Shown here: positions 1,914 to 28,414 of the stretch, one piece after another | How positions within the stretch are numbered: the stretch's first letter is position 1 | Layout of the letters: every line of letters begins with the position of its first letter | Assembly: GCA_017618275.1 (NCBI GenBank) | Contig: JAFZUS010000111.1 | Span: forward strand, 39,573 to 103,572 | Direction of reading: 5' to 3' | Origin: Prevotella sp. | GTDB lineage: Bacteria > Bacteroidota > Bacteroidia > Bacteroidales > Bacteroidaceae | DNA length: 64,000 nucleotides | The notes under the pieces: model-generated | Databases searched by the model: none | Seen by the model: only the letters and a program-made list of their open reading frames with translations | What the model was told of the DNA's origin: nothing | Translations under genes and position numbers: made by a program

Positions 1914-2132
1914 ATGAGCAACATTCAACCAGGATCATTTTACCAATTGTCTTCAAGTCAGTCATCTGGTGATGATAAGTCTTCAATTTGGGGCGGCTTA
2001 ATATCATTTGGCATATCGGCATGTGTTTTCTTCTTCTATGCCTATGAGCAATTTGGTGTGTTTTGGGGGATTCTTTATTCTTTGTTTTGGTATTTTACAA
2101 TACCTGTTCATTATTTGTTAAGTTGTATTTAG
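1914..2132 (+). CDS. Small (72 aa) two-helix membrane protein
   Basis: Ser-rich polar N-terminus followed by two hydrophobic stretches (GGLISFGISACVFFFYAY and VFWGILYSLFWYFTIPVHYLL). I recognise no family. Confidence 0.5.
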   Translation: MSNIQPGSFYQLSSSQSSGDDKSSIWGGLISFGISACVFFFYAYEQFGVFWGILYSLFWYFTIPVHYLLSCI

Positions 2133-2178
2133 TATTACGTTGTCTCACCACAGATATTCTTCAACGTAGCCATTGAAG

Positions 2179-2203
2179 TTGGGGCTTTTCGGTCAAGCCC
2201 CAA
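2179..2203 (+). terminator. Hairpin downstream of the small membrane-protein ORF
   Basis: Perfect 9-bp stem ttggggctt / aagccccaa with a 7-nt loop. No T-run follows. Confidence 0.4.
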
Positions 2204-2269
2204 ATGAAGGAAAAACAATCGTTTTAATTTTTTTAAGACTAAAAGGATTGCATAATGAAATTATTTGCT

Positions 2270-2277
2270 TAAATTTG
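2270..2277 (+). promoter_or_regulatory. Bacteroidota -7 promoter box (TAAATTTG)
   Basis: Matches the TAnnTTTG consensus of Bacteroides primary-sigma promoters, 87 nt upstream of the ATG at 2364. Confidence 0.5.
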
Positions 2278-2363
2278 CAATCGATTCACAGAGTTTTGTG
2301 CTCAAAGTGAAATAACCCAAAACATACCGATTCTCGATATTCTAATAACTCAAACATAGACGA

Positions 2364-5303
2364 ATGAAAAAGAATACTACCAAATGCAAAGTCATTAGAA
2401 TGACCATTCTTGCCATTGTGTCATTATTAGTCGTTATTGGCCCTACATATTATATAAGAAATGTAAAAGGGTCTGTTCCAACAACGCGTTTGGAATCCTT
2501 CCTGAATCAAAGCCTCCCCAAACCCATAAAAACACATATAGCCAACAAGGAACTGAAGACAGGCGAAGTAGATGAAAATCTAAAACGCATCGATGATGTG
2601 CTAATCGGACTTGACAAAATAAACTTACAGACTTCTCCTGGTGCAAATCAGTTGCGGCTTTTTCTTGAAAAGCCTTGGGCGATGGATTACTTGTTTATCG
2701 CATCCGTTGTTTGCCTATTCTTTATTTTTATCATTTCTATTTGGAGGACATTCCGACGGAAACTATATAACAAATGGTATTGGATAATGATACCGCTCAT
2801 AGTCCTACTGGCTTTTTTGGACATCTCGCACCACCTTGATGATGCGTCTAAGAATCAGGTTGACGACTTCTTTGTCTTTATTTGTTTCCTAAGTATTGGC
2901 GTAGCAGTCATCGCTATTGTTCAGATGCTCATTAAATTCTTAGATAAAAAATTCAGTAGTCAGATTCGTCTAGTGCGGAGGGAACATCGTCAGAATACAT
3001 TGTTGTGGGCTGCCATTGCCGGTTGGTCATTAGCCTACCTGTGCTTTTTCATAGGTATGTATGCGGCAGGAACGCAGAAGTCGGCACTTGCAGCCATTTT
3101 CCGTCCTGCCCTGTCTGCTTGCAAGATGTTTTTCCTTGCCGACAGCCCAGCCGATTTCTCTGCAGCATTGCGTCTGAGTGGAGGCTTTATGGGTTTCTAT
3201 ACCATTGTCAAGATTATTGTTTTAACCATTACCACCTCGACTCTGATTTCACTCATTTTTTATAGATGGAAGGCCTCTTTGGATATAAATTTTGAGCATG
3301 CAGAAGGGAAAAAACTCTATGTATTCTTTGGTATTACAAGGGTCGCACGAATCTTGGCAAAGGATATCCGAGCAAAAGAAGAAGAATCTGTTATTGTATT
3401 TGTAGAAAACCGCGAAGAAAAATCTAACCTATTCAATTCCGTTTCTTTTAGTAGCGTCTTGGGATTACTGCGCCATAGAGGTGGGGCTTATGAGATTGCT
3501 GATGAAGTTGATGCTCATCTCATTATTAGTAATGTCATGATGAGCAGTCCGGAATGCAGTGAGTTGCTTTCCAAAGACGCTCCCACATCAATACAGTTGA
3601 TGATGAATAATCTGGGATTGAAGCATTTTTATTGTTTGGCAAAAGATGCCAAAGAGACACATTGCTTCTTTATGTATGATGACCAAAATATCAATATCAG
3701 TGGCTCTTACAACCTTCGCAAGTTTTTGAACAAGTCATTTTATGATTCTGATAAGAAATTCAAGATTCATTGTTGGGCAAGGCCGAGTGCCAAGACTCAG
3801 ATGCTAGAGATTCCTGAAGAAGAAACGTCTGTGTGGCTGTACCAAAAGACTATTAAAGAAAAAGTCATTCAATGTTATCATCGTCTTTCAGAATATTTAC
3901 AAACTTTGTATAAAAAATTATGTTGTCCAAAACAAAAAGACCACAAACAGGAACAGAAAGTGGTGAGTTCACCCAAATATGATACAGAAATAGAAATCCT
4001 TGATAGTTCACATTTGTCCGTACAGTTGCTTATGCAGAATCCAGAATGTCATCCAATACGCTTTGTGGATGTAGACACTGATACTGCAACTGTTAAAAAC
4101 CGGTTTGAGGCATTAATCATCGGCTTTGGTGAGACAGGCCAGGATACCCTTAAGTTCCTTTATGAATTTGGAGCATTTATGCACCACGAGTGTTCTGAAA
4201 ATGATTCAGAAGAAACGGCAAGAACTGCAATCACTGTTCGTTCTCCTTTTCATTGTGATGTGATAGATAGTAATATGAGTATGTTAAAGGCAGAGTTCAT
4301 GCATAATGCCCCAGCTGTAGCCAATGCGTTTAATATGCAGAAAAAAAGTGGCAAGTGGAAACCCAATTTAGAAGATCCGCTTGTGTCGTTTCATCAGGCA
4401 AAATACAACAGCCAAGAGTTTATTGACCTTATAGAAGAACGTATCACGAAAGTCAATTATATTGTTTTGGCATTAGGTAGTGACGAATTAAACCTCACGG
4501 TACTCAATGACTTGATGGAAATCGCTGTCAGAAAACGTGAAAAGGGCTATTTGGGAGAACTTACGATTTTTGTCCGCAGTTATCTGTATAGCAATAATGA
4601 AGCTATGAAACAAATGGCATCTTATTACAACAATTTGGGATACGGTGATGAAAATATTAAACGTATAAAGCGTGAACATGTAATCATCTTTGGCGAGGAA
4701 CACCAACTGTTTTCCTTTAAGAACATCATTAGGGATGAAATTGTATCTCATGCAAAAGAATACTTTAGAAGATATGAAGAACTGCGGACAAATAAGGAGA
4801 AAAATAAAGACATATGGGATAAACGCCATAATAACTATAAAATTTTGTCATGGGAAATAAGAAAGAAAGTAAAGCGTCAGGAACAGCAGGACATAAATAA
4901 TTCCCTACATGCAAAGACAAAGTATCGACTCATATCCAATCACGATATTCCTGTCTTGTTTAAGGAAATTGCTGATGCTATTATTTTTGAAGAAGGTGGT
5001 AAACCCATACAATTTAGTACAAGCGATATAGCCATAAAAAGAATATGTACGAACCTAGCACGTACGGAACATTTGCGTTGGAATGCCTCACATGAAATGT
5101 CAGGTTATATTATGAACGAGAGTACTGGTTGCAATGAAATGAACAAGACCCATAATTGTTTGGTTCCGTGGGAAATTCTACCTAAGGTTACAAGTACTCA
5201 CAACAAAGCAGAAGACCAAAAGAAACCTGAAGAAGAAAAATACTATGTAGACTATCAGGCCTACGACTATCTGGTGGTAAAAACTACGTTTGATTATGTT
5301 TGA
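2364..5303 (+). CDS. Polytopic membrane protein with two Rossmann-like (TrkA-N/RCK-like) modules and a C-terminal RyR-like domain
   Basis: About six hydrophobic helices in aa 10-300 (LFIASVVCLFFIFIISIW, WIMIPLIVLLAFL, FFVFICFLSIGVAVIAIVQMLI, LLWAAIAGWSLAYLCFFIGMYAA, YTIVKIIVLTITTSTLISLIFY). Glycine-loop segments LYVFFGITRVARILAKD and ALIIGFGETGQDTLKFL. The C-terminus (nt ~5040-5300), ARTEHLRWNASHEMSGY..KTHNCLVPWEILP..EEEKYY, aligns by eye with the two stand-alone RyR-domain genes downstream. Confidence 0.7.
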   Translation: MKKNTTKCKVIRMTILAIVSLLVVIGPTYYIRNVKGSVPTTRLESFLNQSLPKPIKTHIANKELKTGEVDENLKRIDDVLIGLDKINLQTSPGANQLRLFLEKPWAMDYLFIASVVCLFFIFIISIWRTFRRKLYNKWYWIMIPLIVLLAFLDISHHLDDASKNQVDDFFVFICFLSIGVAVIAIVQMLIKFLDKKFSSQIRLVRREHRQNTLLWAAIAGWSLAYLCFFIGMYAAGTQKSALAAIFRPALSACKMFFLADSPADFSAALRLSGGFMGFYTIVKIIVLTITTSTLISLIFYRWKASLDINFEHAEGKKLYVFFGITRVARILAKDIRAKEEESVIVFVENREEKSNLFNSVSFSSVLGLLRHRGGAYEIADEVDAHLIISNVMMSSPECSELLSKDAPTSIQLMMNNLGLKHFYCLAKDAKETHCFFMYDDQNINISGSYNLRKFLNKSFYDSDKKFKIHCWARPSAKTQMLEIPEEETSVWLYQKTIKEKVIQCYHRLSEYLQTLYKKLCCPKQKDHKQEQKVVSSPKYDTEIEILDSSHLSVQLLMQNPECHPIRFVDVDTDTATVKNRFEALIIGFGETGQDTLKFLYEFGAFMHHECSENDSEETARTAITVRSPFHCDVIDSNMSMLKAEFMHNAPAVANAFNMQKKSGKWKPNLEDPLVSFHQAKYNSQEFIDLIEERITKVNYIVLALGSDELNLTVLNDLMEIAVRKREKGYLGELTIFVRSYLYSNNEAMKQMASYYNNLGYGDENIKRIKREHVIIFGEEHQLFSFKNIIRDEIVSHAKEYFRRYEELRTNKEKNKDIWDKRHNNYKILSWEIRKKVKRQEQQDINNSLHAKTKYRLISNHDIPVLFKEIADAIIFEEGGKPIQFSTSDIAIKRICTNLARTEHLRWNASHEMSGYIMNESTGCNEMNKTHNCLVPWEILPKVTSTHNKAEDQKKPEEEKYYVDYQAYDYLVVKTTFDYV

Positions 5304-5393
5304 ATGCTCATAATATAATTATAATGTCTGAGCCTGTATGCAATAGTAGGTAGTAGCCATGTTTGTGGTATAGCAATATTCATTTGACACATT

Positions 5394-8300
5394 ATGACAA
5401 GTCGTAAAAATGATCGCTTTGAAAGAAATCTCATTGAAAATCGTGAGGTGCGTATATTCTTGTCCTCAACTTTTTCAGACATGGACCCAGAGCGTTCAGC
5501 GCTAGTAAAGGTATTCAACCAACTAAAGTTAAAGGCCAATCGTCGCAATGTTGGTCTTTCGTTACTTGATCTACGTTGGGGGGTAACTGATGAAGAGGCG
5601 CGAACAGGAAAAGTGCTTTCCGTTTGCTTGAATGAGATTGAGAACTCTCATCCGTTTTTCATTGGTCTACTAGGTAGTCGTTATGGTTATTCTCCTGATG
5701 CTATGGAAATTGAGAGGAATCCGGAACTGAAGGAACGGTATCCATGGCTCTCTCAAGATATTGAGCAAGGGTTGAGTATTACGGAGATGGAGATGCAGTA
5801 TGGAGCACTGCGAAATGAAAAGGGTGTTGAAGCTGCCTTTTTTATCAAGCATATCCCTAATATGCAACCTGATGATAATGAAAAACTAACTAAGCTGAAA
5901 AAAAAGATACGCGAACAGCATCGTTTCCCTGTGGCCGATTATTGCTCAATTGACGATCTTTGCCTGCAAGTTGAAAAAGTTGTAGATGGTTTGTTGGACA
6001 AGTATTTCAAAGAAGCCGATGAAACTCGTCATGGATGTATGCGGAATATCCAGCGCGCTTTTATGAATAGTCGACACAAACTCTATATACCTAGAAAAGA
6101 GGACTTTGAGCGCTTAAATCAATTCCTTAACAGTAAGGAACAATATCTTTTAGTGACAGGTCAAAGTGGTATAGGGAAAAGTGCATTAATCGCTAACTGG
6201 CTGAAAGAGCTAGAATGTAAAAAACACAAGCAACCTTGTAACATTATATACCACTTTTTAGGAAACACGTTCGGCAGTAACTCCTACGAGGAAGTGCTAC
6301 TTCATATCTGTGATGAGTTAGTCTCTCAACACTATTGTCGTGAAACCATTTTGGAAGATTATGAAAGTCTGGAAGATAGAGTTCAAAGATATATGTCGAT
6401 AGCTGTTAAGAAGGGTAAGCCTATCTTAGTTGTAATCGATGGCGTTAATCAGATATCAAATTATAATCAAAGTTTTCCTTTCGACTGGTTACCACAGCCA
6501 CATCCAAAGATAAAATATCTTTTTTCTTCAGTTGAGGATGACGAAATAACAAAGGCCTTCCATTACCATAAATACCCAATATATGTCTTAAAACCGTTTA
6601 ACATCGATCAGAAATATGAATTTATCTCAGAGTATCTTTCTCTTGTAGGTAAAAAACTCAATGAGGGCCAATATAATCGTATTATACATAGTCCAATAAC
6701 AAATAACGCATTGGTATTAAGGTCACTACTTGACGAACTCATTTGTTTTGGATCTTATGAATACCTTGATGACCGAATTAATTATTATATCTCATCCAAT
6801 TCTGTAGCAGATTTTTTTGACCGCATTCTACAACGAATGGAAAAGGATTATGAGGGTGCACAACTTCTGTTAGCCGTACTCTCTGTTTCAGAACATGGAC
6901 TGTCAGAGAATGAACTTGTAGGGATTACAGGCATTAGTAATATTAATTTTCATATGTTCTATTGTGCATATACTACTCATATAACCAATTGTCGTGGATT
7001 ATATAATTTCTCTCACCAATATTTTAAATATGCGGTAATGTCTCGATATCTGAAAGACCAGTTAAGTACTGAATTATATCGTAAAAAGATAATTCGATTT
7101 TTCTCTGAGAACAAAGATATCAGTTATAGTCGTAGAATGCCAGAACTTGCTTTTCAATATTATTCACTGAAGGATTTGAAGAGTCTATACGGCATCGTCT
7201 TGAATGATTATGCTTTCATGACTTTCTGTTCTACGACAGAAGGTAAAAGCCAATTGGCTCTATATTGGAAAGAATTGAAAGAGTCAGATCCAACCAAATA
7301 TCATTTCTCTGACTATTTAAATCTTTCTCATAAGATGAGTTTTTTTAGGAGAAGACCCTATTTGGAGATGGCCTCCTTCTTTTGTGAGTTTTTTACAGAT
7401 TACAAGACATCATTGAAATACGCTAAAGAATATCTTGCAATTGAAAAATCGGAAAAAGGGCAAGACTGGGATCGCATTGCGAAAGGACTTGTCCGGATTG
7501 GAATATATTACAAAGAACTACATAACTATGAGAAAGCTTTAGAAAATTTCTTTAAATTATTAAAAGACTATGAAAAAATTGTATTATACGATATTCATAC
7601 AATATACGAAGAAATGGATGATAATGATTTCTTTATGGAAGAAGAACTTCAGGATTATATTCTTGATTCGTATATCAATATTGGAGAAATATATTATTTA
7701 CAAGACAATATTAATAAAGCACAAGAATTTTTCCTTAAAGCATTAAAAGTTAGCAAGAGGATTTTTTTTGATAAGAATCATCCGTGGATTGCGTCTTGTT
7801 GTTGTTATGTCGGTAGGACACATGAAATAATGGGGAACTGTGATAAGGCAATCAGGAACTATCATAAAGCTCTTAGTATTTTTAAGAAACTATATGGTGA
7901 TTTTCATATAGAAACTGCTAATTGCTATTTTAGAACAGGCAAAACTTATGCACTTCAGAAAAACTATGATAAAGCTTTACTATACTACTTTAAAGTTGTT
8001 GATATATACAAACTTATCTATGGAAATAGCAATGCCCAAATTGCTAATTGTTATTTTTCTATTGGTAGCGTTTATGAATGTCGAAAAAACTACGATGAGG
8101 CTTTAGATTACTATTTAAGAGCTTTGGAACTCCGTAAAAAGACGGTAGGTAATAAGCATATAGCTACCGCTGTCACCTACACTCATATTGGTTATATATA
8201 TGAAAAAACTAATGAATATACAAAAGCTCTTGAGAGCCATATTAACGCCTTAAATTTTTATAAAATAAAATATGGAATCAATCACATAAAAACAGCTTAT

Positions 8301-9344
8301 TGCTATAATGACATTGGCAGAGTTTACAAATGCCTCGAAGAATATGAAAAAGCATTGAAATACTATTTTATGGATTTGAAGATTCGTATAGAAGAGTATG
8401 GAAATAACCATCTAGAGATAGCCGTATGCTATAATGACATTGGAGCAGTTTATCAAAAAATGAAAGAATTTGATACGGCGTTAGAGTACTATTTTAAAGA
8501 TTTATCAATCTCTGAAAACGTTGTTGGCTCGAATCTTATCGAAACTGCTATCTCCTATAGCGATATCGGAGAAACCTATAAATCTAAAGGGATGCCTCAA
8601 AAAGCGTTAGAATATTTTATCAAGGCTAAGGTGACTTACGAGTCTGTTCTTGGGACATGTCATCTTACTACAGCCGACACCTATAATGAAATTGCTGAGA
8701 TATTTACCAGCCTAGATGATTATTCACATGCGCTAGAATACCACTTAAAGTCTTTGGACGTATTTCAAAAAGTATATGGCATGGATCATTCTATAACAGC
8801 AGATGCATACAATGATGTTGGTTGGGACTATTTGCAACTAGAAGAATATGGCCAAGCTTTAGATTTCTATTTTAAGGCTTTGGCTTTTCATGAAAAGATG
8901 CAAGGTAAGGAACACGTTGAAACTGCAAATACCTATTACTATATCGCTTATATCTATGATGAATTGGATAATTATTCTATGGCGCTAGAATATAATATAA
9001 AGGTCTTGGATATATACAAGATAGTCTATGGCGATTATAGTACTAATACAGCTGATGCATATAGGGAAGTCGGGTGGGATTACTTGCAACTAGAAGTATT
9101 AGACAAATCTCTTGAGTATTTTTCTCAAGCGTTAGCTATACGTTTGAGAGAAATGGGCCAAAAGCATTCTGATACGGCTGAATCATATAAGGACATCGCT
9201 TTAGTTTATTTACGCCAAGGTGAATTACAACAAGCAATTGATTCATATTCTAATGCTTTAGTTATTGCTGAAAAGGTATTGGGAGAAAACCATCCGAATA
9301 CAATAGAAATAAGAAAGATGATAAAAGAATTATGTTCACATTAG
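5394..9344 (+). CDS. STAND NTPase: DUF4062-like (TIR-like fold) N-domain + NACHT-type P-loop + long TPR array
   Basis: The N-terminus VRIFLSSTFSDMDPERSALV...FFIGLLGSRYGYSP looks DUF4062-like. Walker A is LLVTGQSGIGKSALIANWL (nt ~6157-6186) and Walker B-like is PILVVIDGVNQ (nt ~6421-6450). The C-terminal ~600 aa are regular 42-aa kinesin-light-chain-type TPR units (...A.CY..IG.VY....(E/N)Y(D/E)KAL.YY.KAL.I..). Confidence 0.85.
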   Translation: MTSRKNDRFERNLIENREVRIFLSSTFSDMDPERSALVKVFNQLKLKANRRNVGLSLLDLRWGVTDEEARTGKVLSVCLNEIENSHPFFIGLLGSRYGYSPDAMEIERNPELKERYPWLSQDIEQGLSITEMEMQYGALRNEKGVEAAFFIKHIPNMQPDDNEKLTKLKKKIREQHRFPVADYCSIDDLCLQVEKVVDGLLDKYFKEADETRHGCMRNIQRAFMNSRHKLYIPRKEDFERLNQFLNSKEQYLLVTGQSGIGKSALIANWLKELECKKHKQPCNIIYHFLGNTFGSNSYEEVLLHICDELVSQHYCRETILEDYESLEDRVQRYMSIAVKKGKPILVVIDGVNQISNYNQSFPFDWLPQPHPKIKYLFSSVEDDEITKAFHYHKYPIYVLKPFNIDQKYEFISEYLSLVGKKLNEGQYNRIIHSPITNNALVLRSLLDELICFGSYEYLDDRINYYISSNSVADFFDRILQRMEKDYEGAQLLLAVLSVSEHGLSENELVGITGISNINFHMFYCAYTTHITNCRGLYNFSHQYFKYAVMSRYLKDQLSTELYRKKIIRFFSENKDISYSRRMPELAFQYYSLKDLKSLYGIVLNDYAFMTFCSTTEGKSQLALYWKELKESDPTKYHFSDYLNLSHKMSFFRRRPYLEMASFFCEFFTDYKTSLKYAKEYLAIEKSEKGQDWDRIAKGLVRIGIYYKELHNYEKALENFFKLLKDYEKIVLYDIHTIYEEMDDNDFFMEEELQDYILDSYINIGEIYYLQDNINKAQEFFLKALKVSKRIFFDKNHPWIASCCCYVGRTHEIMGNCDKAIRNYHKALSIFKKLYGDFHIETANCYFRTGKTYALQKNYDKALLYYFKVVDIYKLIYGNSNAQIANCYFSIGSVYECRKNYDEALDYYLRALELRKKTVGNKHIATAVTYTHIGYIYEKTNEYTKALESHINALNFYKIKYGINHIKTAYCYNDIGRVYKCLEEYEKALKYYFMDLKIRIEEYGNNHLEIAVCYNDIGAVYQKMKEFDTALEYYFKDLSISENVVGSNLIETAISYSDIGETYKSKGMPQKALEYFIKAKVTYESVLGTCHLTTADTYNEIAEIFTSLDDYSHALEYHLKSLDVFQKVYGMDHSITADAYNDVGWDYLQLEEYGQALDFYFKALAFHEKMQGKEHVETANTYYYIAYIYDELDNYSMALEYNIKVLDIYKIVYGDYSTNTADAYREVGWDYLQLEVLDKSLEYFSQALAIRLREMGQKHSDTAESYKDIALVYLRQGELQQAIDSYSNALVIAEKVLGENHPNTIEIRKMIKELCSH

Positions 9345-9378
9345 ACATATATATTAAAATAATTATGTAAGGATAATT

Positions 9379-9693
9379 ATGAATCAGGAGATATACACCC
9401 CGCAGCCCATTGACACCAGCGATGTTGAGCTGCCAAAGGAACTGGAGGCACTGGTGGAACAGATGTCGAAGAACGTACATGATGTTTGGGCGGAGACTCG
9501 CATCAAACAAGGATGGAAGTATGGATCAGAACGAAACGACGAGCTGAAGACGTATCCTTGTCTGATTCCATACGAGGAACTGCCTGAGGAAGAGAAGGAG
9601 TACGATCGCAATACCTGCATCGGCACGCTTAAGCTCATCATGAAATTGGGATTTGATATTTCAAAAGCGCAAAATAAAACTCAACAAGTATGA
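9379..9693 (+). CDS. Stand-alone RyR (ryanodine-receptor repeat, PF02026-type) domain protein, copy A
   Basis: HDVWAETRIKQGWKYG..RNDELKTYPCLIPYEELPEEEKEYDRNT matches my recollection of the RyR-domain signature. The stop overlaps the next gene's start (ATGA at 9690-9693). Confidence 0.85.
   Translation: MNQEIYTPQPIDTSDVELPKELEALVEQMSKNVHDVWAETRIKQGWKYGSERNDELKTYPCLIPYEELPEEEKEYDRNTCIGTLKLIMKLGFDISKAQNKTQQV
9394..9665 (+). repeat. Direct repeat copy A (RyR gene body), ungapped and highly similar to 11982-12253
   Basis: The copies lie 2588 nt apart and read colinearly without indels (tacaccccgcagcccat(t/c)gacaccagcgatgt...gtttgggcggagactcgcatcaaacaaggatgga...). Confidence 0.85.
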
Positions 9694-11942
9694 AAATTGA
9701 TAAAAAAGGATTCAAAGCGGAGATTGAGAAACAGAATGCCAGAGGAAATCTGGATGTTTTTATCAGCTACAGGAGCAAAGAAGTTGACTTTGTTACAAGA
9801 CTTTATGAGGAATTCAAAAACAACTTCGTAAATGCATGGTTTGACAAGGCAATACTTCATGAAAATGCAGGAAAGTATTATCCAGAAATCATACATGAAG
9901 GAATTCGAAATTCGAAGTTTTTTCTCCTGATATACACAGAGAGTATTGCCGAATCAGAATTTATTATAAAGCAGGAACTTGAATACGCAATAAGCCAAGG
10001 GAAAACTATTTTATGCTATCCTAAGGAAACCCCAGACTTTAACAAGATGGAGAAAAACCTTAAGAAGCAACTTGAATCTATCCAATGGCTTGCTAACAAG
10101 GAAAGTAGTAAAGATATTGACGCATATAGAAAGGAGATTGAAGAGGAACGGAAGCGTGTCATTATGGCAAAAACCGTAAATGACTCGCCCGAGAAGTATT
10201 CTGTCTATGAAGATGAGAATCTCTTTCTGATTCGCATTGAGATCCAGCGCCTTTTAAAGAAACTGACACCTTACGGCAACTACCAAACAATAAGCAAGGC
10301 AGATCCTGTTTACGATTGGGACAATATTCAACTAAGAATATGGCCTAAGACTTTTTACATAAAAATACCAGAAACTAAATACAAAGACCTAGAAAAGGGA
10401 GGATTCTTTAAAACAGCCAAAGAGGATTCAAAGAAAAAGGAAAAAGCTATTGACGATTACTTTGACAAGATAAAAAACATCCATAAAATAGAGGAAAACG
10501 AAATACTGGAATATCTAAAAAATTTCATTAATTCCTATGACCACAAGAAGCTTTATAATTGGATGCTTCAAAATAGGTCTGAATACATGAAACCATACAC
10601 AGAAGAAGCGTTCTCAGCTGACGACTTCATCAAAGTTATGGCAATGATAACTAGTGACGCTTTTATCAAGCAATTGGGAGCTAAGCAGGTGATGTTTAAT
10701 GGTGCAATGACAGGTCTGTATGGGGTGACAGATAACCGTACGAAGAATAGTGAAAGTCACTATTTGACTATGGATATGTATTTTACTAACTATTTTACCT
10801 TTAAGTGTATGGTGGAGACGTACCATACCCTAAGGTCAATAGAAGACAAATTTGAAAAAATCAAGACAACAAACATACGAAAATATTCACCATTTTTAAG
10901 TTCTTTGGGATTGGGAGGTTTTGTCGTTATTAACCAAGATTACAATTTGCATTTAATGTGGACATATAGGAGCGGAAAGATTTCGTCTGGCGATATGTGG
11001 CATTTCTCGTTTGATGAGACATCCAATATTTTGAAGGATTGTTTCCACGATAAGCATGGGAATTTTGTTCTTGATGAAGATTTCTGTCTGCTTATTGATA
11101 TGAAATCATATTTTATGCGAGCATTGAGAGAGGAAATTGGATTATCACCTGATGACATTTCTTTCCGTCAAGGTGTAACAGAGCTTGGAATTATCAAGAG
11201 TGAAAGATTAGAGGCAGAACTATTATCCTACTGTGTAGTAGATCTGCCGGCACAACCTTCTATCGTAGAGCAAATGGCTAAATTTCGAAACATTGCCCCC
11301 GACAGCTATCTTGAAACGGAGGAAATAGAAATTATACCATTGCAAGAAACCGCAAAAAAAATGACAGGTAGATTGTTGACTCCAGAATCCGTAAGTCTGT
11401 CATCGTTCGTTGAAAAAATAATGGATCAAATGGACAAGGAAAATCGTGGAATCAATATTGCTCCGACAGCAAAAATAGGTATTGAGACTAAGATTGGAAA
11501 GAATTGTATCATAGAAGATTATAGCTATATAGGCTCAAAATGTAGCATAGGTGATGAGTGTAAGATTCATCGAAATGTCTTTATCGACAATAATGTAGTA
11601 ATTGGTAATCGTGTCAAAATTCAGAACAATAATAGTATCTACGAAGGAGTTACATTGGAAGACGGTACTTTTATTGGAACTAACGTGACCTTTATCAATG
11701 ACCGACATCCCAGAGCTATATTAAAAGATGGGAAACAGGTTGGACCTGGTGATTGGGAAAGGGGATATACTCGAGTTCGTTATGGTGCGTCATTAGGGGC
11801 AGGTTCTGTTATTATGTGTGGAGTTACCATTGGCAAGTGGGCAATGGTGGCCGCAGGCTCTGTTGTCCTTGAAGATGTTCCTGATGGCGCGTTGGTTGCT
11901 GGTAATCCAGCAAGGATAATAAAAACGGACATTCCTTATTAG
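9690..11942 (+). CDS. TIR-domain protein fused to an uncharacterised middle region and a C-terminal left-handed beta-helix (hexapeptide) acyltransferase domain
   Basis: N-terminus LDVFISYRSKEVDFVTRLYEEF...FFLLIYTESIAESEFIIKQELEYA looks like a TIR domain. The C-terminal ~170 aa carry hexapeptide repeats (IGKNCIIEDYSYIGSKCSIGDECKIHRNVFIDNNVVIGNRVKIQNNNSIYEGVTLEDGTFIGTNVTFINDRHPRA...VIMCGVTIGKWAMVAAGSVVLEDVPDGALVAGNPARII), resembling nucleotide-sugar N-acetyltransferases. I could not assign the middle ~400 aa. Confidence 0.8.
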   Translation: MKIDKKGFKAEIEKQNARGNLDVFISYRSKEVDFVTRLYEEFKNNFVNAWFDKAILHENAGKYYPEIIHEGIRNSKFFLLIYTESIAESEFIIKQELEYAISQGKTILCYPKETPDFNKMEKNLKKQLESIQWLANKESSKDIDAYRKEIEEERKRVIMAKTVNDSPEKYSVYEDENLFLIRIEIQRLLKKLTPYGNYQTISKADPVYDWDNIQLRIWPKTFYIKIPETKYKDLEKGGFFKTAKEDSKKKEKAIDDYFDKIKNIHKIEENEILEYLKNFINSYDHKKLYNWMLQNRSEYMKPYTEEAFSADDFIKVMAMITSDAFIKQLGAKQVMFNGAMTGLYGVTDNRTKNSESHYLTMDMYFTNYFTFKCMVETYHTLRSIEDKFEKIKTTNIRKYSPFLSSLGLGGFVVINQDYNLHLMWTYRSGKISSGDMWHFSFDETSNILKDCFHDKHGNFVLDEDFCLLIDMKSYFMRALREEIGLSPDDISFRQGVTELGIIKSERLEAELLSYCVVDLPAQPSIVEQMAKFRNIAPDSYLETEEIEIIPLQETAKKMTGRLLTPESVSLSSFVEKIMDQMDKENRGINIAPTAKIGIETKIGKNCIIEDYSYIGSKCSIGDECKIHRNVFIDNNVVIGNRVKIQNNNSIYEGVTLEDGTFIGTNVTFINDRHPRAILKDGKQVGPGDWERGYTRVRYGASLGAGSVIMCGVTIGKWAMVAAGSVVLEDVPDGALVAGNPARIIKTDIPY

Positions 11943-11966
11943 GCTGTTTTTAAAATATTACAAAAT

Positions 11967-12260
11967 ATGAATAAGTATAACTACACCCCGCAGCCCATCG
12001 ACACCAGCGATGTGGAACTGCCAAAGGAATTAGAAACACTGGTGGAACAAATGTCGAAGAATGTGCATGAGGTTTGGGCGGAGACTCGCATCAAACAAGG
12101 ATGGACGTATGGTCAGGAACGGAACGACGAGTTAAAGACGCATCCCTGCTTGATTCCATACGAGGGACTATCTGAGGAAGAGAAAGAGTACGATCGCAAT
12201 ACTAGCATTGGCACTCTTAAATTCATCATGAAACTGGGATTTAACATCTCCAAAACCTAG
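11967..12260 (+). CDS. Stand-alone RyR domain protein, copy B (paralog of 9379-9693)
   Basis: HEVWAETRIKQGWTYGQERNDELKTHPCLIPYEGLSEEEKEYDRNT. Most residues are identical to copy A by eye. Confidence 0.85.
   Translation: MNKYNYTPQPIDTSDVELPKELETLVEQMSKNVHEVWAETRIKQGWTYGQERNDELKTHPCLIPYEGLSEEEKEYDRNTSIGTLKFIMKLGFNISKT
11982..12253 (+). repeat. Direct repeat copy B (RyR gene body)
   Basis: See copy A at 9394-9665. Together the two copies bracket the TIR-acyltransferase gene. Confidence 0.85.
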
Positions 12261-12351: not shown

Positions 12352-12810
12352 CTACCAAAGGTACTCTTCGACATAGCCACTGAAATTGGGCTCTTCGGTC
12401 CAGCCGCATCTTTTGATGGTATTGCGGACGTATTGCTCCACGTCGGGAGTCATGGGGCGGGTGCCGTTGTGGTATTCATAGTAGCGCTTACGGGAGTAGA
12501 CATTGATGAGATGATGCTTGATGGCGCGCTCGATGCGGCCTGGCATGTTATAATAGATGGTGGAGAGTCCGACGGGCATGCGGACAGGCTCGTCGTTACG
12601 GAACAGGGGACAGTCGGAACGCTGCATCGTGGGGTTGTTGAGGTTGACGCTAAGGACGTAAACCCTGTCGTCCGGCGTATATTTGCTGAGAATGCTATGC
12701 AGACAATGTTCACGGATGGGGCAGGTTGTGCTGTAACAAACCTGATAGTTGTCTGCTTTCTCTCTGAAAATCTCTTCTCTGGTCTTTGGGGTCATACTTT
12801 TCTTTTCCAT
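12352..12810 (-). CDS. Hypothetical protein (152 aa), divergent partner of the VirE-like gene
   Basis: Clean ORF with a TATCTTTG box upstream (complement of 12833-12840). Coding-like composition. I recognise no family with confidence. Confidence 0.6.
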   Translation of the reverse strand: MEKKSMTPKTREEIFREKADNYQVCYSTTCPIREHCLHSILSKYTPDDRVYVLSVNLNNPTMQRSDCPLFRNDEPVRMPVGLSTIYYNMPGRIERAIKHHLINVYSRKRYYEYHNGTRPMTPDVEQYVRNTIKRCGWTEEPNFSGYVEEYLW

Positions 12811-12832
12811 ATCTGATATTGTTATTTGGATG

Positions 12833-12840
12833 CAAAGATA
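12833..12840 (-). promoter_or_regulatory. -7 promoter box (TATCTTTG on the minus strand)
   Basis: caaagata on the plus strand, 23 nt upstream of the start at 12810. Confidence 0.5.
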
Positions 12841-13363
12841 ATAATAATGTGCGACAAAAACAAATTTCTTTCAATAAATATTTCATTTTGTCTATACATT
12901 TATACATTATATGATTATTTTATTATTAATCAGGTAATTACTTAATGAATAGTTCTTAATACTAATTATATACTATACATAATTGTTCAAAAATGAGTCA
13001 CAATAATATACGAAACTGCATTTTATTATCTGGAAATCAATTTGTTCTGTAATTATTACTATATCCGAAACAACTTGTTTCATAGGTAGAAACAATATAT
13101 TTTGTAGATAGAAACAAACTGTTTCCGTCGTTGCAATATAATGTAAACTGACATCTCAATCACCCTAAAGTGATATGAGAAAAGGCCATAAAGACTATCT
13201 CTTGCCACTGCTTATGTATAGATAATAGGATAAATATATAATTATACATCCATTAAATGCTTAATACTCAATAATATATCTTTCAAATGTATAGATGTAT
13301 AGTTATTTTTATATTTTTCCAATGAATTCCTATTATATATTTTGGTAATTCAAGAATAATTTG

Positions 13364-13371
13364 TAATTTTG
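13364..13371 (+). promoter_or_regulatory. -7 promoter box (TAATTTTG)
   Basis: 32 nt upstream of the ATG at 13403. Confidence 0.5.
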
Positions 13372-13402
13372 CAGTCGAATTTCATAAAGGCAACATAGAA
13401 GT

Positions 13403-15553
13403 ATGAATAAAGTTACCATCGTAAAACAATATCGGAATACCCAAACGCTCAGGCAGATGGATCTCTCTGAGGTCGTGCAGGCTATTCAGAATCAGGCATA
13501 CGCCGAATTATGTAAGGAACTGCGGTCTGTCTATCCCTTGGTTGAGGTGCGCCAGAAGTATGATACCATGGACGGCCTGTTGTATCTCTATACCAAGGAC
13601 TTGCCCAAGGTCTGCTTCGCATCGCTGATGGAGAACAGGAACAAGCAGCGGCTGACAAGGGCCTACAACGGGCTGGTGCTGCTGGAGGTGAACAACCTCG
13701 CCGCTTTCGATGAGGCTGAGGCTGTCAGAAAAGGTGCCAGTCAGATTCCTCATACCCTTCTGGCCTTCGTCGGAGCCAGCGGTAGGAGCGTGAAGATTGT
13801 ATGTCGGGGGGAACTGTTCAATGGCGGACTGCCTGAAAGTGCCGAGGAAATCGGCGTCTTTCACACCAACCTCTATGAGAAAGCCCGTGTGGCCTATAAC
13901 ATGCAACTCGGTGTGACTATCGAGAAACTGGAACCAACGCTCGACAGAGATTGTTATATCAGTAGTGATCCGAACCTATTTTATAACCCTGGTGCGCAAA
14001 CCTTCTATACCGACTGTTCAGACGTGGACAAGGCCGTGAGACCGGTGACGCTCTACGCAGAGAAACAGGAGAAACTGATGCCTGGCATGGACAACAGCCG
14101 TGCCATGCACCTTATCTATGAGTATTGTCTCTCGAAAGCCTACGATGACACAGCGGGTATCAGTGATGGGGAGGAAAGGACACACCTGATCCTAACGCGA
14201 CTGGCAGGCTACTGTCAGGAGTCGGGGCTCGCGATGGCGGTGGCACAGCGGTTGGCACTGTTCAGTCTGACGCTCGGAAAGGATCCGGACTTAGTGAAAA
14301 AGACGTTTGAGAATGCCTATCGTGAGGAGCATGAGAGGAAATACCGCCAGCGCAAGAACATCACCAAACCGATGAAGCATGTCCCTGCTGAGACATTGCT
14401 GATGATGAAGGTGGATATCTTCCTCAATACCAACTACGAGTTGCGTAAGAATGTGATGAGGGGCGTGGCGGAATATAGGATGCGTACAGGCTACGGTTTC
14501 AGTTATCAGGACTTGACGGAAGAAGCACGCAACTCTATCACGATGCGGGCATTGTCGCAGGGTGTGAAGTGCTGGGACAAGGACATCAACCGTTATGTGA
14601 ACTCCAATGACATTGAACTCTATGAACCGATGACGGACTTCCTGGATCACCTGCCGAAGTGGGACGGCAAGGACCGAGTGGAGCCCCTCGCCCGCCGTGT
14701 CAAGACGGATTTCGAGGAATGGCCATATCTCTTCCATATCTGGATGCGTTCGATGGTGGCCATGTGGCGTGGCAAGGGACAGTTGACAGGCAATGCCCTC
14801 GTACCTATATTAATTGGTCGTCAGGGGTGCGGAAAGACATCCTTCTGTCGGATCCTGTTGCCCAGAGACCAGCGGGATTACTATAATGACCGCATCAACT
14901 TCAAGAACGAGCATGACCTGAACCTCGGACTGACCTCCTTTGCGCTGATCAATCTCGACGAGTTTGATAAGATTACTCAGCGCCAGCAGATCGTATTGAA
15001 GTACCTTGTGTCGACCTCCGATTTAAAATATCGTCCGCCATACGGCAAGGCTTATTCGAACCATCGTAGATATGCCTCATTTATCGGCACCACGAACGAG
15101 AGTACGCCGCTGACGGATCCCAGTGGCAGCCGACGGTTTATCTGTGTCAACGTGGAGGGCGACATCGACTTTGAGACACCGATAGACTACCCGCAACTCT
15201 ATGCCCAACTGGAATACGAGGTGTCGAGACAAAGACTGCGCTACCATCTGACCCGTGACGAGGAGCATATGTTGATGCAGCACAATCTGCGCTACCAGCG
15301 TCTTACCCAACTTGGCGAGCAGTTGCTCTCGCTTTTTGAAAAGCCGGAGGGGACGTCGAAGACCAATCCAGAGGGTGGCCAATGGATGACACTGAAGGAA
15401 ATCTCCGCCCGTTTGAAGAAGGTCTTCAAGGGTGCCTATGCAGAGGATGAGGGTTCCTATATTAAAATAGGTAACTTCCTCAACCGTCCCGAATGTAAGT
15501 TCGAGAGCGACCGCAAGTCCTTCGGCATGGTGTATTGGGTGAAGGAAAGGTAA
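13403..15553 (+). CDS. VirE-like / BT4734-type primase-helicase (P-loop NTPase of mobile elements)
   Basis: The N-terminal region resembles the BT4734/VirE_N primase-like domain. P-loop PILIGRQGCGKTSFCRILLP and Walker B ALINLDEFDK, then the typical C-terminal region (IGTTNE...GSRRF). Confidence 0.75.
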   Translation: MNKVTIVKQYRNTQTLRQMDLSEVVQAIQNQAYAELCKELRSVYPLVEVRQKYDTMDGLLYLYTKDLPKVCFASLMENRNKQRLTRAYNGLVLLEVNNLAAFDEAEAVRKGASQIPHTLLAFVGASGRSVKIVCRGELFNGGLPESAEEIGVFHTNLYEKARVAYNMQLGVTIEKLEPTLDRDCYISSDPNLFYNPGAQTFYTDCSDVDKAVRPVTLYAEKQEKLMPGMDNSRAMHLIYEYCLSKAYDDTAGISDGEERTHLILTRLAGYCQESGLAMAVAQRLALFSLTLGKDPDLVKKTFENAYREEHERKYRQRKNITKPMKHVPAETLLMMKVDIFLNTNYELRKNVMRGVAEYRMRTGYGFSYQDLTEEARNSITMRALSQGVKCWDKDINRYVNSNDIELYEPMTDFLDHLPKWDGKDRVEPLARRVKTDFEEWPYLFHIWMRSMVAMWRGKGQLTGNALVPILIGRQGCGKTSFCRILLPRDQRDYYNDRINFKNEHDLNLGLTSFALINLDEFDKITQRQQIVLKYLVSTSDLKYRPPYGKAYSNHRRYASFIGTTNESTPLTDPSGSRRFICVNVEGDIDFETPIDYPQLYAQLEYEVSRQRLRYHLTRDEEHMLMQHNLRYQRLTQLGEQLLSLFEKPEGTSKTNPEGGQWMTLKEISARLKKVFKGAYAEDEGSYIKIGNFLNRPECKFESDRKSFGMVYWVKER

Positions 15554-19073: not shown

Positions 19074-22000
19074 TTAAATTATTGCTAGAGCCGGTAGTAA
19101 TTCATATGCAGGGGCGGCCGCTCCTCCTGTCTGTACAACTAAATAAGTTATTCCGCCAACGACAACAACGGCTACTACTGTCTTTGCCACATCTGCAACA
19201 GTTATTTGTTGAACTTTTGACAATGTGTAATAATATGCTGACACTCCCGCTACAGTTACTTTTTGTGCAACACTAGTTGCGTACTCCTTGATAGTAGCTC
19301 CTATTGCTGAAGCAGCCATGCCCATTTCCAACAGTTTTGCTTTTAGGCTTTCTACAGTCTCTCCTGGTGGAACATCATATTTGGGATCATATCTATAATT
19401 AGGTTTCCCTGGTTTTGGTGTTGACTTGCAGAATTTTTCTTGTTTTAGAAGATCACATAAATATTTTCTAACGTTATCCTTTATACCACTTGTAGGGTCA
19501 CTTTTTCCACCACCTGTATTACCGCTTGGAGTATTTGGTCCCGGTCGTCCTGTTTCCAAAGGAGTAGCAGCCGCTCCATTTATATCAACCATCATAATCG
19601 GATTATTATCCGCATAAGGATAGAGGTTTGTGCTCCAGATGGGGTCTTCGGAAAGGAAGCGGCCGATGGTGGGGTCATAGTGACGGGCTCGCATATAGTA
19701 GAGGTGATCGTCTAAAGCCATCACGCCATACTTGCCAACATACTGGAATGGGTTATAATCAGCCTCTTTCTTCTGAATGACCTTACCAAACTCATCATAC
19801 TGATACTTATGGGTAATCTTGCCATTTTCATTAACAATTGCCACAACAGAGCCACGGACATCTGTAACATAATAACTTGTCTTGCCATTCTTTACACGAG
19901 CCTCAAGGCCATTGCCATAGATATAATGTGCTCCGCTTTTCGAATCGCTGAGCACATTGCCTATACCCAGCGGGTCAGTCGTAAACTCGATGTCACCGTA
20001 AGAACTAATCAGCCCTAACGGGTCATACGTAATAGAGGTAGAGCCTGCTGCTGTCAGGCGATCCTGTTTGTCCCAACTGTAAGTCTCACTGCCACGTTTG
20101 GTTGTATTACCGTTAGCATCGAATTTGAATTTGATGTTACCAGCCTTTGTGATACGGTTACCGTTGTTATAACTGTAACTGACATCTTCATCTGACAGAA
20201 CCACCAGATCGTATGGTTCCTGCGTGGTCTGTTCAGTGATATTGCCAACCTTGTCTAATGTATAATTATAACTGGCTATTATTGTGCCGTTGCTCAGTGT
20301 CGTAGTCTTGCTAGTTAGACGGCCTATTGCGTCGTAGCCATACTTAGTGGTCATACCATTGGGATATTCCACCTTGTCGAGTTGGCTATCCTTGCGATAG
20401 GTATAGGTGATGGTCTTGTCGTTGAATTCCACAGAGGTCAGACGGTTCAGACCGTCGTAACTATAATGTGTGTCATTGATACTGGTGCAGTTGCCGTTCT
20501 TGTCGTATGTATAACTGTTGCTATTGTTATTATAACGTGTGCCTTTGATGCGGTTGAAACCATCGTAGGAGAATGAGAGTGTCTTGCCACTCCCTGATAT
20601 CGACGACAGACGGAGTTTGCTGTCATATTTGTAATCGTTAACTCCGTCGCTGGTCATACGCCCCAGGTCATCGTAAGTATAGGAGAGCGCCGTGCCGTCC
20701 GGCTTGGTGAAGGTGCTGAGCGTTCCGTCTTTGTTGTAACTATAACCCTTAGTAACGCCATTGAATGTCACAGACGTCAGCCAGTCCGTTGCATTGTCAT
20801 ATGACAGGGATGTCACACCGCCCTTGGCATTGGTGATACTAGTCAGATTTCCGTTTTTGTCGTAAGCATAACTAGTAGTGTGGCTCAATGGGTCTGTCTC
20901 ACTCGTTAAGAGGTCATTTTTATCATAGACAAATGAACTGGTACGTCCTAAAGCGTCAGTTGTACTAACAAGGCGACTGGCCTTGTCATATTTTGCTGTG
21001 CTTGAAAGGTTCAAGGCAGGCAGTGACATCTTAATCAGGTTGCCATAACTGTTGTATTCAAAATTAGTCTTCACCCCCATTGCATTAGTCACCGTTTTGG
21101 TCAAGCCCTTGCCGTCGACGGTGATGCTGGTGGATACACTTTCTGGATCCGTCACCTTTATCAGGTTGCCCTTTGTGTCGTATTTGTATTTCTTTTTATT
21201 GCCTTTGGGGTCTGTTACGCTTGTTAGGTTGTTCATATCGTCGTAAGTCATCGAGGTGGTAAGTGTACCGTCGCTTCCTTTCAATGTGATACTCGTTACA
21301 TTACCTTTTGCGTCATAACTAACATTGCTGATTTCAGTGCTGTTGCTCTGCATGGTTGTAGGCAGTTCTGGATAATCTGTATTGCCATAGGTGCCATTAT
21401 AAAACATACCATCAGCGCCAGTTACGCCTGTCACCACATTATTTTTATTGTAGGTATAATTATATGATGAAGTCTTCGAACCTCGTTCAACATCGATTTG
21501 CGACTTTGTGCTGATTGTACTGCTACCATATTGGGCTGTTACGTTGATGCTTGTCTTAGTGGTCGGTATACCACTCACGCCGCTAACCGTATTCTTCAAG
21601 CGGCTGTTAGCATCATATTCATTTTCGATATAGTTGCCATTTGGCAGTTGGATGCGGCTTAGCAACTTCGAGGTACCAGCCTTCGTGAGGTTGGCATACT
21701 CGTAGGTCGTTTTATTACCCTCAGCATCGGTGAAACTTTTCAGTTGTTTCTTGCCGGTCTGAAGATTGTCGAAATATGTGAACTTGATAGTACGGTTCAA
21801 TGGGTCCTTTACCTTTGAAAGCAGATCGGTGCCACTTAAATAGGAGAAAACCAGAGAACGCTGTCCGTCGCTGACGTTGCTGATACGCTTTGAACCGTTT
21901 TGGCCATCCTCATAGTTGATGGTCAGTGTATTGCCGTTGCGATCCTTGATACTGGAGAGATAGAAGACTGCAGCCCCAGAACCGCCCTGTTTGCTAAAGA

Positions 22001-23471: not shown

Positions 23472-23483
23472 ATTGTTGTCCTC

Positions 23484-28319: not shown

Positions 28320-28382
28320 ATAAAAATAATACTATGATGGCATTTTTTTGCTGTTTTGTGATGGAGTTTAAGAAAAAATGCC

Positions 28383-28390: not shown

Positions 28391-28414
28391 CAAACAAAAC
28401 CAAACTATAGAAAG

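Follow-up and report, generated by a model that had tools for sequence, protein, structure and literature searches.

What does a bacterial operon do that sets a STAND NTPase and a TIR-domain enzyme beside three ryanodine-receptor (RyR) domains, one of them carried by a channel-like membrane protein? The question is raised by a 64,000-nucleotide stretch of a Prevotella sp. contig (GenBank assembly GCA_017618275.1, contig JAFZUS010000111.1, positions 39,573 to 103,572 of the forward strand), hereafter the window, to which all coordinates refer unless another locus is named. An earlier note, made from the sequence alone, had singled out five adjacent genes in it, here called g1 to g5, as a candidate conflict system. 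The gene set looks like an undescribed bacterial antiviral signalling system. Our preferred reading, to which we give about even chances, is that it belongs to a modular, multi-sensor antiviral locus of the Thoeris kind, whose receptor is an RyR (Repeat12-type) domain on an RCK-gated, channel-like membrane protein; every functional step in this reading is one that we infer.

The five open reading frames (ORFs) lie on the forward strand exactly as the earlier note described them: g1 at 2364–5303 (979 amino acids, aa), g2 at 5394–9344 (1316 aa), g3 at 9379–9693 (104 aa), g4 at 9690–11942 (750 aa) and g5 at 11967–12260 (97 aa). Intergenic gaps of 90, 34 and 24 nucleotides (nt) separate them, and the g3 stop and g4 start share a 4-nt ATGA overlap (9690–9693). 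The AT-richness reported for the cluster is equally clear, with a guanine-plus-cytosine (GC) content of 0.31–0.40 across 1–13 kb vs ~0.50–0.54 across 26–64 kb of the window. The RyR motif that had been counted three times does occur three times in its core, KT[HY]xCL[IV]P[YW]E, but the full pattern does not, since g1 carries a 17-aa insertion, g3 lacks a two-residue spacer and g5 has LS in place of LP.

We propose that g1, a channel-like membrane protein, is both effector and receptor. The protein has no Pfam match, its family has no Pfam model, and a phmmer search of its sequence against PDB returned nothing useful; its RyR end was found by profile–profile comparison. An AlphaFold2 (AF2) model built from 72 sequences (pLDDT 87.6, pTM 0.79) has about six membrane helices, two Rossmann/RCK domains and an RyR-like domain, and its best PDB matches in Foldseek are Slo2.2, Slo1/BK, GsuK (solved with NAD) and MthK, with probability 1.0. 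Thus, the count of about six transmembrane (TM) helices made from the sequence stands, and the two modules then called Rossmann-like are a tandem RCK pair by Foldseek. The membrane region covers aa 1–310 (2364–3293, +) with about six hydrophobic helices, and its best-conserved segment, GMYAAGTQKSALAAIFRPALSACKMFF, lies between the last two of them, where a pore loop would be expected (G236, Q238, S240, R247-P248, K254-M255-F256 and D260). The tandem RCK/Rossmann-like domains follow at aa 317–480 and 541–780 (3312–4703, +), and the second of them contains GFGETG (GxGxxG; G587/G589/G592) together with an invariant D635, a fingerprint of dinucleotide binding.

The g1 C-terminus (aa 885–979; 5016–5300, +) is a divergent RyR domain of the Repeat12 type, in agreement with the initial assignment. 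Comparison of the C-terminal region of 72 family members with small RyR proteins gave an hhalign probability of 96.6% (E = 5e-10). Moreover, an RyR hidden Markov model (HMM) that we made from small RyR proteins matched this region in 10 g1 homologues, and the Pfam RyR model matched it below threshold in 4 of 10 family representatives. Residues H903, W906, H930 and D968 are at least 90% conserved among the 72 sequences, with an insertion preceding the Asp. The family is large, comprising 12 close clusters and 1286 representatives (50% identity) at E ≤ 1e-3, 429 of them at E ≤ 1e-30.

Shorter members of this family have a companion. Directly upstream of g1 homologues of ~800 aa, and overlapping their start, lies a gene for a small protein (134–170 aa) that combines one TM helix with a coiled coil (L051 5958–6425, L086 7178–7582, L114 7311–7772; 40 members in the loci examined); neither the window nor the N-terminus of g1 contains its counterpart. 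The idea that the N-terminal 200 aa of g1 represent this protein in fused form was rejected, as the two gave no match. Likewise, proteins matched by both the g1 and the RyR models are not tandem repeats, since it is the C-terminal domain that the RyR model detects in them; a true tandem occurs in P0128 only.

g3 and g5 are stand-alone, single-repeat RyR proteins, as first proposed, and are 86% identical to each other. They match Pfam RyR (PF02026) with E = 8e-36 (122.6 bits) and E = 1e-37 (128.7 bits), respectively, against a cut-off of 27.4 bits, and g3 matches the RyR-like protein 3NRT of B. thetaiotaomicron (E = 5.5e-34). The earlier statement that bacterial RyR domains have no assigned function is outdated by recent work on phage RyR proteins, which bind 2'cADPR, 3'cADPR and cyclic ADP-ribose (cADPR) with nanomolar to sub-micromolar affinity or hydrolyse the ribose–ribose bond (PMC13232231; 10.64898/2026.06.04.730250). 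RyDEP, a single-repeat RyR/Repeat12 protein, hydrolyses cADPR-type signals and contacts its ligand through H75/W78/H100/D117 (PMC13232231); the corresponding contacts in RyR-Tad are H129/W132/H154/D171 (10.64898/2026.06.04.730250). Among eight phage homologues assayed, six bound signals, and cleavage was confined to the founding RyDEP (PMC13232231). These experiments on phage homologues back the earlier proposal that RyR modules are ligand-binding domains. The candidate ligand residues of g5, H34/W37/H59/D76, have the same spacing (+3, +25, +42) as the contacts in the phage proteins, and across 35 small RyR proteins of related loci they are conserved in 35 (H34), 35 (W37), 32 (H59) and 34 (D76) cases. 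The equivalent set in g3 is H34/W37/Y59/D76; with Tyr59 in g3 and His59 in g5, the two paralogues may differ in ligand preference or activity. Unlike the phage genes, g3 and g5 stand in a host or island operon together with TIR, DUF4062 and STAND genes.

Stand-alone RyR genes were also seen on IMG/VR viral contigs from rumen and gut (L119–L126). They encode proteins of 93–175 aa, 49–66% identical to g3, and sit amid many small co-directional genes with no TIR gene or g1 homologue close by. Such lone genes on phage-like contigs fit phage counter-measures, namely sponges, against an RyR-ligand signal, and judged by sequence they are candidate phage sponges aimed at this host system.

g2 combines a DUF4062 domain, a P-loop NTPase and a TPR array, as had been described, and all three have Pfam matches: DUF4062, a TIR-like NADase domain, at aa 20–140 (5451–5813, +; PF13271, E = 1e-14), a NACHT STAND NTPase at aa 234–415 (6093–6638, +; NACHT/AAA_16/NPHP3_N) and 10 TPR_12 stretches at aa 640–1316 (7311–9341, +). 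With its Walker motifs (GQSGIGKS and LVVIDG) the protein has the NLR-like STAND layout of an N-terminal effector domain, an NTPase with Walker A and B, and a C-terminal repeat sensor; no curated Avs or bNACHT model of PADLOC matches it, and only a generic TPR model does. DUF4062 has been described as a TIR-like NADase that yields ADP-ribose (ADPR) and nicotinamide and defends against phages (10.64898/2026.05.01.722283), and it adjoins NACHT in human NPHP3, TEP1 and NWD1 (2026 preprints on DUF4062). The acidic TExE motif is intact in g2 (T130-E131-M-E133) and is retained in a second DUF4062 protein of the window (15606–18158; TEQE) and in most of 20 aligned DUF4062 homologues; it was equated with KpSwz E97 and Eva01 E87 by motif description only. 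Since DUF4062 is a TIR-like NADase, g2 would therefore be sensor and enzyme: the STAND architecture behind its first description as a sensor is there, but sensing would not be its only part.

g4 joins three putative catalytic domains, of which the earlier note had recognised the TIR and hexapeptide acyltransferase domains, both with Pfam matches, and overlooked the one between them. The TIR domain (aa 20–140; 9747–10109, +; TIR_2, E = 5e-12) is nearest by sequence to AbTir, with E96 at the position of the AbTir 'YEL' motif. The middle domain (aa 170–585; 10197–11444, +) is NUDT22-like: in Foldseek, ~280 columns of it match human NUDT22, a Nudix UDP-sugar hydrolase (5lor/5lf9, E = 8.5e-8), while the Pfam NUDIX model has no match in g4 and the R477-x3-E481-E482-x-G484 box is atypical. 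The C-terminal domain (aa 586–750; 11445–11939, +; Hexapep, E = 3e-21) is a WlbB-like N-acetyltransferase of the left-handed beta-helix (LbH) type, matched in Foldseek by the NDP-3-amino-sugar N-acetyltransferases WlbB, FdtD and QdtC (WlbB 3mqg/3mqh, 42–45% identity over ~160–170 columns) and by phmmer to 3mqg (E = 2.5e-31). The AF2 model of g4 has a pLDDT of 84. E96, the middle-domain box and, in the C-terminal domain, H627 along with further residues are invariant in 22 full-length family members of 42–85% identity, and the family holds more than 150 clusters at 90% identity.

The g4 acetyltransferase is not part of a polysaccharide or nucleotide-sugar locus; it is fused to the TIR and Nudix domains, and its split versions still adjoin a TIR-Nudix gene. 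An origin of the Nudix–LbH part in a capsule or lipopolysaccharide pathway was considered and rejected, as stand-alone homologues of the middle domain lie in conflict-type settings instead. In L032–L038 (for example, L034 9569–10801), such homologues of ~410 aa occur amid AAA ATPases, a kinase-AAA fusion and pentapeptide-repeat proteins, and this setting may be another uncharacterised conflict system.

The earlier claim that the five genes form one functional unit holds in a changed form: conserved neighbourhoods, three kinds of fusion and replacement of the g2 slot point to a recurrent modular unit and not to a fixed five-gene operon. A scan of gut and rumen metagenomes for the g1 family returned 80 loci, of which 72 are distinct, and counts were made on the 42 with at least 8 kb of flank. 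The neighbourhood is indeed conserved: a separate RyR gene lies near the g1 homologue in 31 of the 42 loci, and a TIR or DUF4062 gene does so in 31 of 42. The same HMMs found no RyR, TIR, DUF4062, STAND or g1 gene in 197 kb of control DNA (22–64 kb of the window plus loci L030–L038). The association persists among g1 homologues of only 25–35% identity. The locus is a recurrent modular mosaic with a stable core of g1, RyR and at least one NAD+-cleaving enzyme.

How the modules are exchanged can be seen in individual loci. The closest g1 relatives (59–71% identity) are always followed by SIR2-TIR and then by an nSTAND1 NTPase with WD40, leucine-rich repeat (LRR) or TPR repeats, after which there is usually an RyR gene of 97–99 aa and, in one case, a DUF4062-TPR gene as well. 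The g2 slot is thus filled by a different solution of NAD+-cleaving domain, STAND NTPase and repeats. A search for the g4 family with one genome per species found 29 loci in Bacteroidales, among them Prevotella, Xylanibacter muris, Alistipes, Phocaeicola and Bacteroides, and about 15 of the 29 encode a full-length, one-piece g4 homologue. These full-length loci include ones with small RyR genes (L010, L014, L015, L017, L020 and L025), with g1 homologues (L014, L015, L018 and L020; a g1 fragment in L013) and with DUF4062 proteins (L013, L017 and L018). The best syntenic match is L050/L051, which has nearly the same parts in another order: WD40, g4, a 155-aa protein, g1, RyR, DUF4062-NACHT, a 213-aa protein and DUF4062-TPR.

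Fusions link the same parts covalently. g4 carries a C-terminal RyR domain like that of g5 in P0018, g1 carries an extra canonical RyR domain in P0128, and nSTAND1 is fused to g4 in P0047, P0077, P0080, P0082, P0083 and L015. In addition, a distant analogue on three Bacteroidaceae chromosomes (L026–L028) has an RCK protein of 768–806 aa immediately upstream of a split g4 (9839–12093). The RCK protein contains a Slo-like RCK (Pfam Slo-like_RCK match in L026) and ends in a weakly RyR-like region; in the split g4, the first gene encodes an LbH acetyltransferase of 200 aa and the second a TIR-Nudix protein of 540 aa.

A further arrangement recurs downstream of g1 homologues and is absent from the window: a gene for a protein of ~184–190 aa precedes one for a protein of ~310–355 aa with a C-terminal RyR domain (L044 4497–5988, L114 10184–12382 and many of L043–L117), sometimes with a PrsW-type intramembrane protease next. 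The layout recalls that of phage RyR-Tad, with an N-terminal domain and an RyR domain.

Based on these findings, we propose a plausible course of action for the locus. Repeat-bearing sensors, namely the g2 TPR array, the WD40 proteins upstream and the DUF4062-TPR protein downstream, would recognise a phage component. STAND oligomerisation would then gather NAD+-cleaving domains, either the DUF4062 of g2 or, in sister loci, SIR2-TIR with nSTAND1. The TIR domain of g4 would act as a further or alternative NAD+-processing enzyme, so that g4 may supply or tailor the signal, and its Nudix and acetyltransferase domains could trim or acetylate an ADPR-type product. ADPR or a cADPR isomer would be bound by g1 at its C-terminal RyR-like domain, perhaps with a contribution from the dinucleotide site of the second RCK. 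Opening of the g1 pore would depolarise the membrane, and the infected cell would stop growing or die. g3 and g5 may bind the same ligand and keep its level under a threshold, or hydrolyse it, as an off-switch within the system; alternatively, they may join the lone RyR repeat of g1 or g4 in a two-repeat, Repeat12-like module. The convergence of several sensors on one receptor would explain both why g1 and RyR persist among changing enzyme and sensor genes and why the neighbours are restricted to NAD+-processing genes.

A number of observations weigh against this scheme. The whole-chain TM-scores of g1 to Slo channels and GsuK are low (0.2–0.35), and no K+ selectivity filter of the form T[VI]G[YF]G occurs in g1 aa 1–310; with no recognisable filter and such scores, a pore function is argued from architecture only. 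The residue of g3 that corresponds to the phosphate-contacting His of 32 of 35 relatives, g5 included, is Tyr59 (nt 9553–9555). The RyR ligand residues are conserved across PF02026 generally and cannot separate a sensor from a sponge or a hydrolase. The Nudix and acetyltransferase domains of g4 most resemble UDP/dTDP-sugar enzymes and are not required by the proposed scheme. The neighbourhoods, too, are uneven: a detectable STAND gene lies near the g1 homologue in 10 of 42 loci, a low count partly because our home-made HMMs cover few STAND types, full g4 does so in 6 of 42, and 7 of 42 have no RyR, TIR, DUF4062 or STAND gene at all, which makes the association a mosaic. In the window itself, g1 is not directly succeeded by a small RyR gene, unlike in many other loci. 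DUF4062 is reported to produce linear ADPR and to work through NAD+ depletion, so g2 could be a self-sufficient effector; one gene is enough for defence both in the case of DUF4062 proteins and in that of STAND proteins with an N-terminal effector.

Such single-gene defence favours the idea of a defence island of independent systems. In it, g2 would be an NLR-like NADase complete in itself, in the manner of Avs, bNACHT or Swarozyc, g4 a TIR effector of its own, and g1, together with the small RyR proteins, a nucleotide-regulated transporter with no relation to either; the clustering of defence genes alone would have brought them together. Gene content does differ between loci, and the low-GC conflict island of the window also holds an RHS toxin and a VapE-type primase. 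What makes this idea unlikely in our judgement is the company that the g1 homologues keep, which is that of RyR, NAD+-cleaving and STAND genes and not the usual mix of restriction and CRISPR genes, and its retention at 25–35% g1 identity. The fusions of g4 with RyR, of g1 with RyR and of STAND with g4, the tight spacing with one start/stop overlap, and the analogous enzyme–STAND pairs that occupy the g2 slot in sister loci likewise speak for a connected whole.

An alternative of another kind concerns what the RyR modules do. They could be homotypic assembly adaptors whose RyR–RyR dimerisation recruits g1 and g4 to STAND-nucleated complexes, like effector-associated domains of other STAND conflict systems. 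RyDEP and RyR-Tad both dimerise back-to-back through helices a1 and a4 (PMC13232231; 10.64898/2026.06.04.730250), single repeats in each case, and in animals Repeat12 consists of two repeats in tandem; one lineage has the small RyR domain joined to g1, another has the same domain joined to g4, and one operon here has three RyR modules. We nonetheless hold a pure adaptor role to be improbable: conservation in the small RyR proteins and the g1 domain extends beyond the dimer helices to near-invariant ligand-contact residues, and none of the STAND proteins seen has an RyR domain. As dimerisation and ligand binding are compatible, this view would refine the receptor reading more than replace it.

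The receptor reading is also preferred over one in which g3 and g5 are counter-defence sponges or glycosidases on a mobile island, silencing the Thoeris-like immunity of the host or of competitors as phage RyDEP and RyR-Tad do. The characterised single-repeat RyR proteins are all anti-Thoeris factors, close g3 homologues occur in phage-like contigs, and the island holds the mobile-element genes VapE and DUF6078. The position of the genes makes this very unlikely, however, since g3 overlaps the start of the TIR gene g4, g5 begins 24 nt after g4, many loci have a small RyR gene directly after the g1 homologue and some have one fused to g1 or g4, and an anti-defence gene would be unexpected within a defence-type operon. 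Barely plausible, finally, is a non-immune module of envelope or redox homeostasis, made of an NAD+/ADPR-responsive ion channel and nucleotide-sugar enzymes: RCK/KTN domains commonly sense NAD(H) or adenine nucleotides (GsuK being solved with NAD), and g4 has Nudix and LbH domains similar to UDP/dTDP-sugar enzymes, but the locus is patchy in distribution, low in GC and island-borne, it keeps the company of TIR, SIR2, DUF4062, STAND and repeat-array proteins typical of conflict systems, and stand-alone homologues of the g4 middle domain lie amid AAA, kinase and pentapeptide genes and not in polysaccharide loci.

The limits of 2364–12260 first drawn for the cluster are too narrow, as the locus continues upstream of the window start and probably takes in a DUF4062-TPR gene downstream. 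At its start, the window cuts the gene for a WD40 beta-propeller protein (1–1248, +; Pfam WD40, E = 5e-91), leaving the C-terminal 415 of 852 aa. The genes further upstream were read from an identical contig, L131, on which a position in the window equals the L131 coordinate minus 7637. There, a co-directional block at 1978–8885 with gaps of 8–16 nt encodes a TIR-FGE-sulfatase protein of 434 aa, a protein of 200 aa and a pair of WD40 proteins (803 and 852 aa), the second of which is the one cut at the window start; both WD40 proteins have an N-terminal region of ~170–200 aa with no assigned domain. WD40 proteins of ~900 aa recur next to g4 or g1 homologues (L018, L020, L051 and L114), and the block probably adds one more sensor/enzyme module to the locus. 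Downstream, the DUF4062-TPR gene (15606–18158, −) encodes an 850-aa protein with no NTPase (Pfam DUF4062, E = 9e-4, plus TPR); its homologues recur at g1-family loci (L004–L006, L050/L051, L094/L096 and L101), and it is a probable further member of the locus.

Other genes place this region in a mobile context. DUF6078 (−) and a BT4734-N/VapE primase-helicase (+), both of mobile-element type, occupy 12352–15553; in B. xylanisolvens XB1A and B. caecimuris (L030 and L031), VapE homologues also lie close to relatives of the g4 middle domain, and L037 has a DUF6078 homologue. Next to the DUF4062-TPR gene, at 19074–23882 (−), are an RHS-repeat polymorphic toxin (1465 aa) and an RHS/dockerin fragment (132 aa), so that genes of antiviral type share the low-GC island with genes of conflict between bacteria. 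This conflict island lies on a mobile element or close to one. No tRNA gene that could mark an integration site is present in the window. The part of normal GC content contains a BspA-type LRR and dockerin protein (1618 aa; 28334–33190, +) that is unrelated to g1–g5.

Between the truncated WD40 gene and g1 lies a 71-aa ORF (1601–1816, +), also called as a gene on L131, which consists of four 33-nt tandem repeats (AGEDIEPGTLH, four times) and has no family match; a GC-rich hairpin follows at ~1826–1860. The box reported in front of the cluster, TAAATTTG, is present at 2270–2277 (+), 87 nt upstream of the g1 start; it is promoter-like, of the Bacteroidetes −7 type, and is a putative g1 promoter element. 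The pattern TAnnTTTG by itself is not enriched in the 64-kb window (50 matches vs 37 ± 6 expected) and thus lends the box no statistical significance. Promoter and terminator scans of the window were uninformative, as the sigma-70 consensus is unsuited to Bacteroidota and terminator-like sites were at background level.

If the receptor reading is true, it would give a function to the RyR proteins encoded by bacterial hosts, which had none until 2026 and of which only phage counter-defence copies have been characterised since. It would also add a receptor domain and an effector class, the RCK-type channel, to TIR/NAD+-based immunity, and show STAND sensors feeding a diffusible-signal pathway. 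A simple bacterial system would then be at hand for asking whether RyR Repeat12 is a true cADPR-type receptor, a long-open question about ryanodine receptors. g4, with its TIR, Nudix and acetyltransferase domains, is a lead for new ADPR-derived chemistry, and the g1 family is common in gut and rumen Bacteroidales and hence relevant to phage–host dynamics there. More tentatively, and at less than even odds in our view, the locus could encode a bacterial ion channel gated by a (c)ADPR-type ligand through an RyR Repeat12 receptor and ancestral to the animal cADPR–ryanodine-receptor link, with g4 making a new messenger (for example, a pyrophosphate-opened or acetylated ADPR derivative) and the free host RyR proteins forming the first known built-in off-switch or buffer of TIR signalling.

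How does the locus compare with known systems? The earlier note had recognised no named system in it, and no PADLOC or NCBIfam model and no paper that we found covers the combination. Pfam, PADLOC, NCBIfam and PHROGs gave g1, g3, g5 and the DUF4062-TPR protein no name and returned no known system; in the literature found, the combination is named nowhere, and two Aravind-lab surveys contain no RyR, DUF4062 or this architecture. The accessible part of a Thoeris survey describes 29 configurations, including the validated type X, a TIR protein with an ion-channel effector (Yirmiya et al. 2025, 10.64898/2025.12.03.692087), and that part of its text and supplementary files mentions no RyR, Nudix or hexapeptide effectors. 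By analogy, the present locus would resemble Thoeris, especially type X: a TIR domain with a catalytic Glu adjoins a membrane or channel effector with a domain able to bind ADPR-derived signals, and abortive infection would be expected. On the enzyme side, g4 has a TIR_2 match and, in all 22 sequences, Glu at the catalytic position (E96); on the effector side, the end of g1 is homologous to the phage RyR domains that bind cADPR isomers, with the contact residues kept. The locus differs from Thoeris in that no PADLOC model of the ThsA/ThsB type matches any of g1–g5, in its RyR/Repeat12 receptor, which takes the place of SLOG, Macro, DUF2270 or DUF6650, in having its enzymes coupled to STAND NTPases or, in g4, joined to Nudix and acetyltransferase domains, and in holding several NAD+-cleaving enzymes and free RyR proteins at once.

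Individual parts have relatives elsewhere. g3 and g5 share with RyDEP and RyR-Tad the PF02026 family, the single-repeat size and the H/W/H/D residues at identical spacing. The phage proteins are counter-defence sponges or glycosidases, whereas here the domains are encoded in a host or island operon, one copy lies within a channel-like protein, and the proposed role is that of receptor and regulator and not of evasion. g2 resembles Swarozyc and Evangelion (DUF4062), Avs and bNACHT, and NPHP3, TEP1 and NWD1 in its N-terminal DUF4062 with the acidic motif, its NACHT-type NTPase and its C-terminal repeats; Pfam NPHP3_N and TPR_NPHP3 both match it, and its architecture is that of NPHP3 and TEP1. 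In Swarozyc and Evangelion, DUF4062 is joined to a short auxiliary (AUX) domain with no NTPase, whereas in g2 it runs into NACHT and TPR and in the 15606–18158 protein into TPR; unlike these relatives, g2 shares an operon with a putative downstream receptor. Judged by its model, g1 would resemble the RCK-gated K+ channels MthK, GsuK, Slo1/BK and Slo2.2 in its membrane helices, conserved inter-helix segment, last helix and tandem RCK domains, and it departs from them in lacking a TVGYG-type filter, in its low TM-scores, in extra N-terminal helices and in the added C-terminal RyR domain. A functional analogy may also be drawn to the ring nucleases of type III CRISPR systems (Crn1-3 and Csx3), small stand-alone proteins with the fold of the effector's sensor that are encoded in the same locus and remove its second messenger; their fold and ligand are unrelated to those of g3 and g5, for which a hydrolase role is putative. 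Taken together, these comparisons place the locus best as an undescribed combination within TIR/NAD+-derived, Thoeris-like signalling immunity, of which it would be a variant, and possibly as the bacterial counterpart of the animal link between cADPR and the ryanodine receptor.

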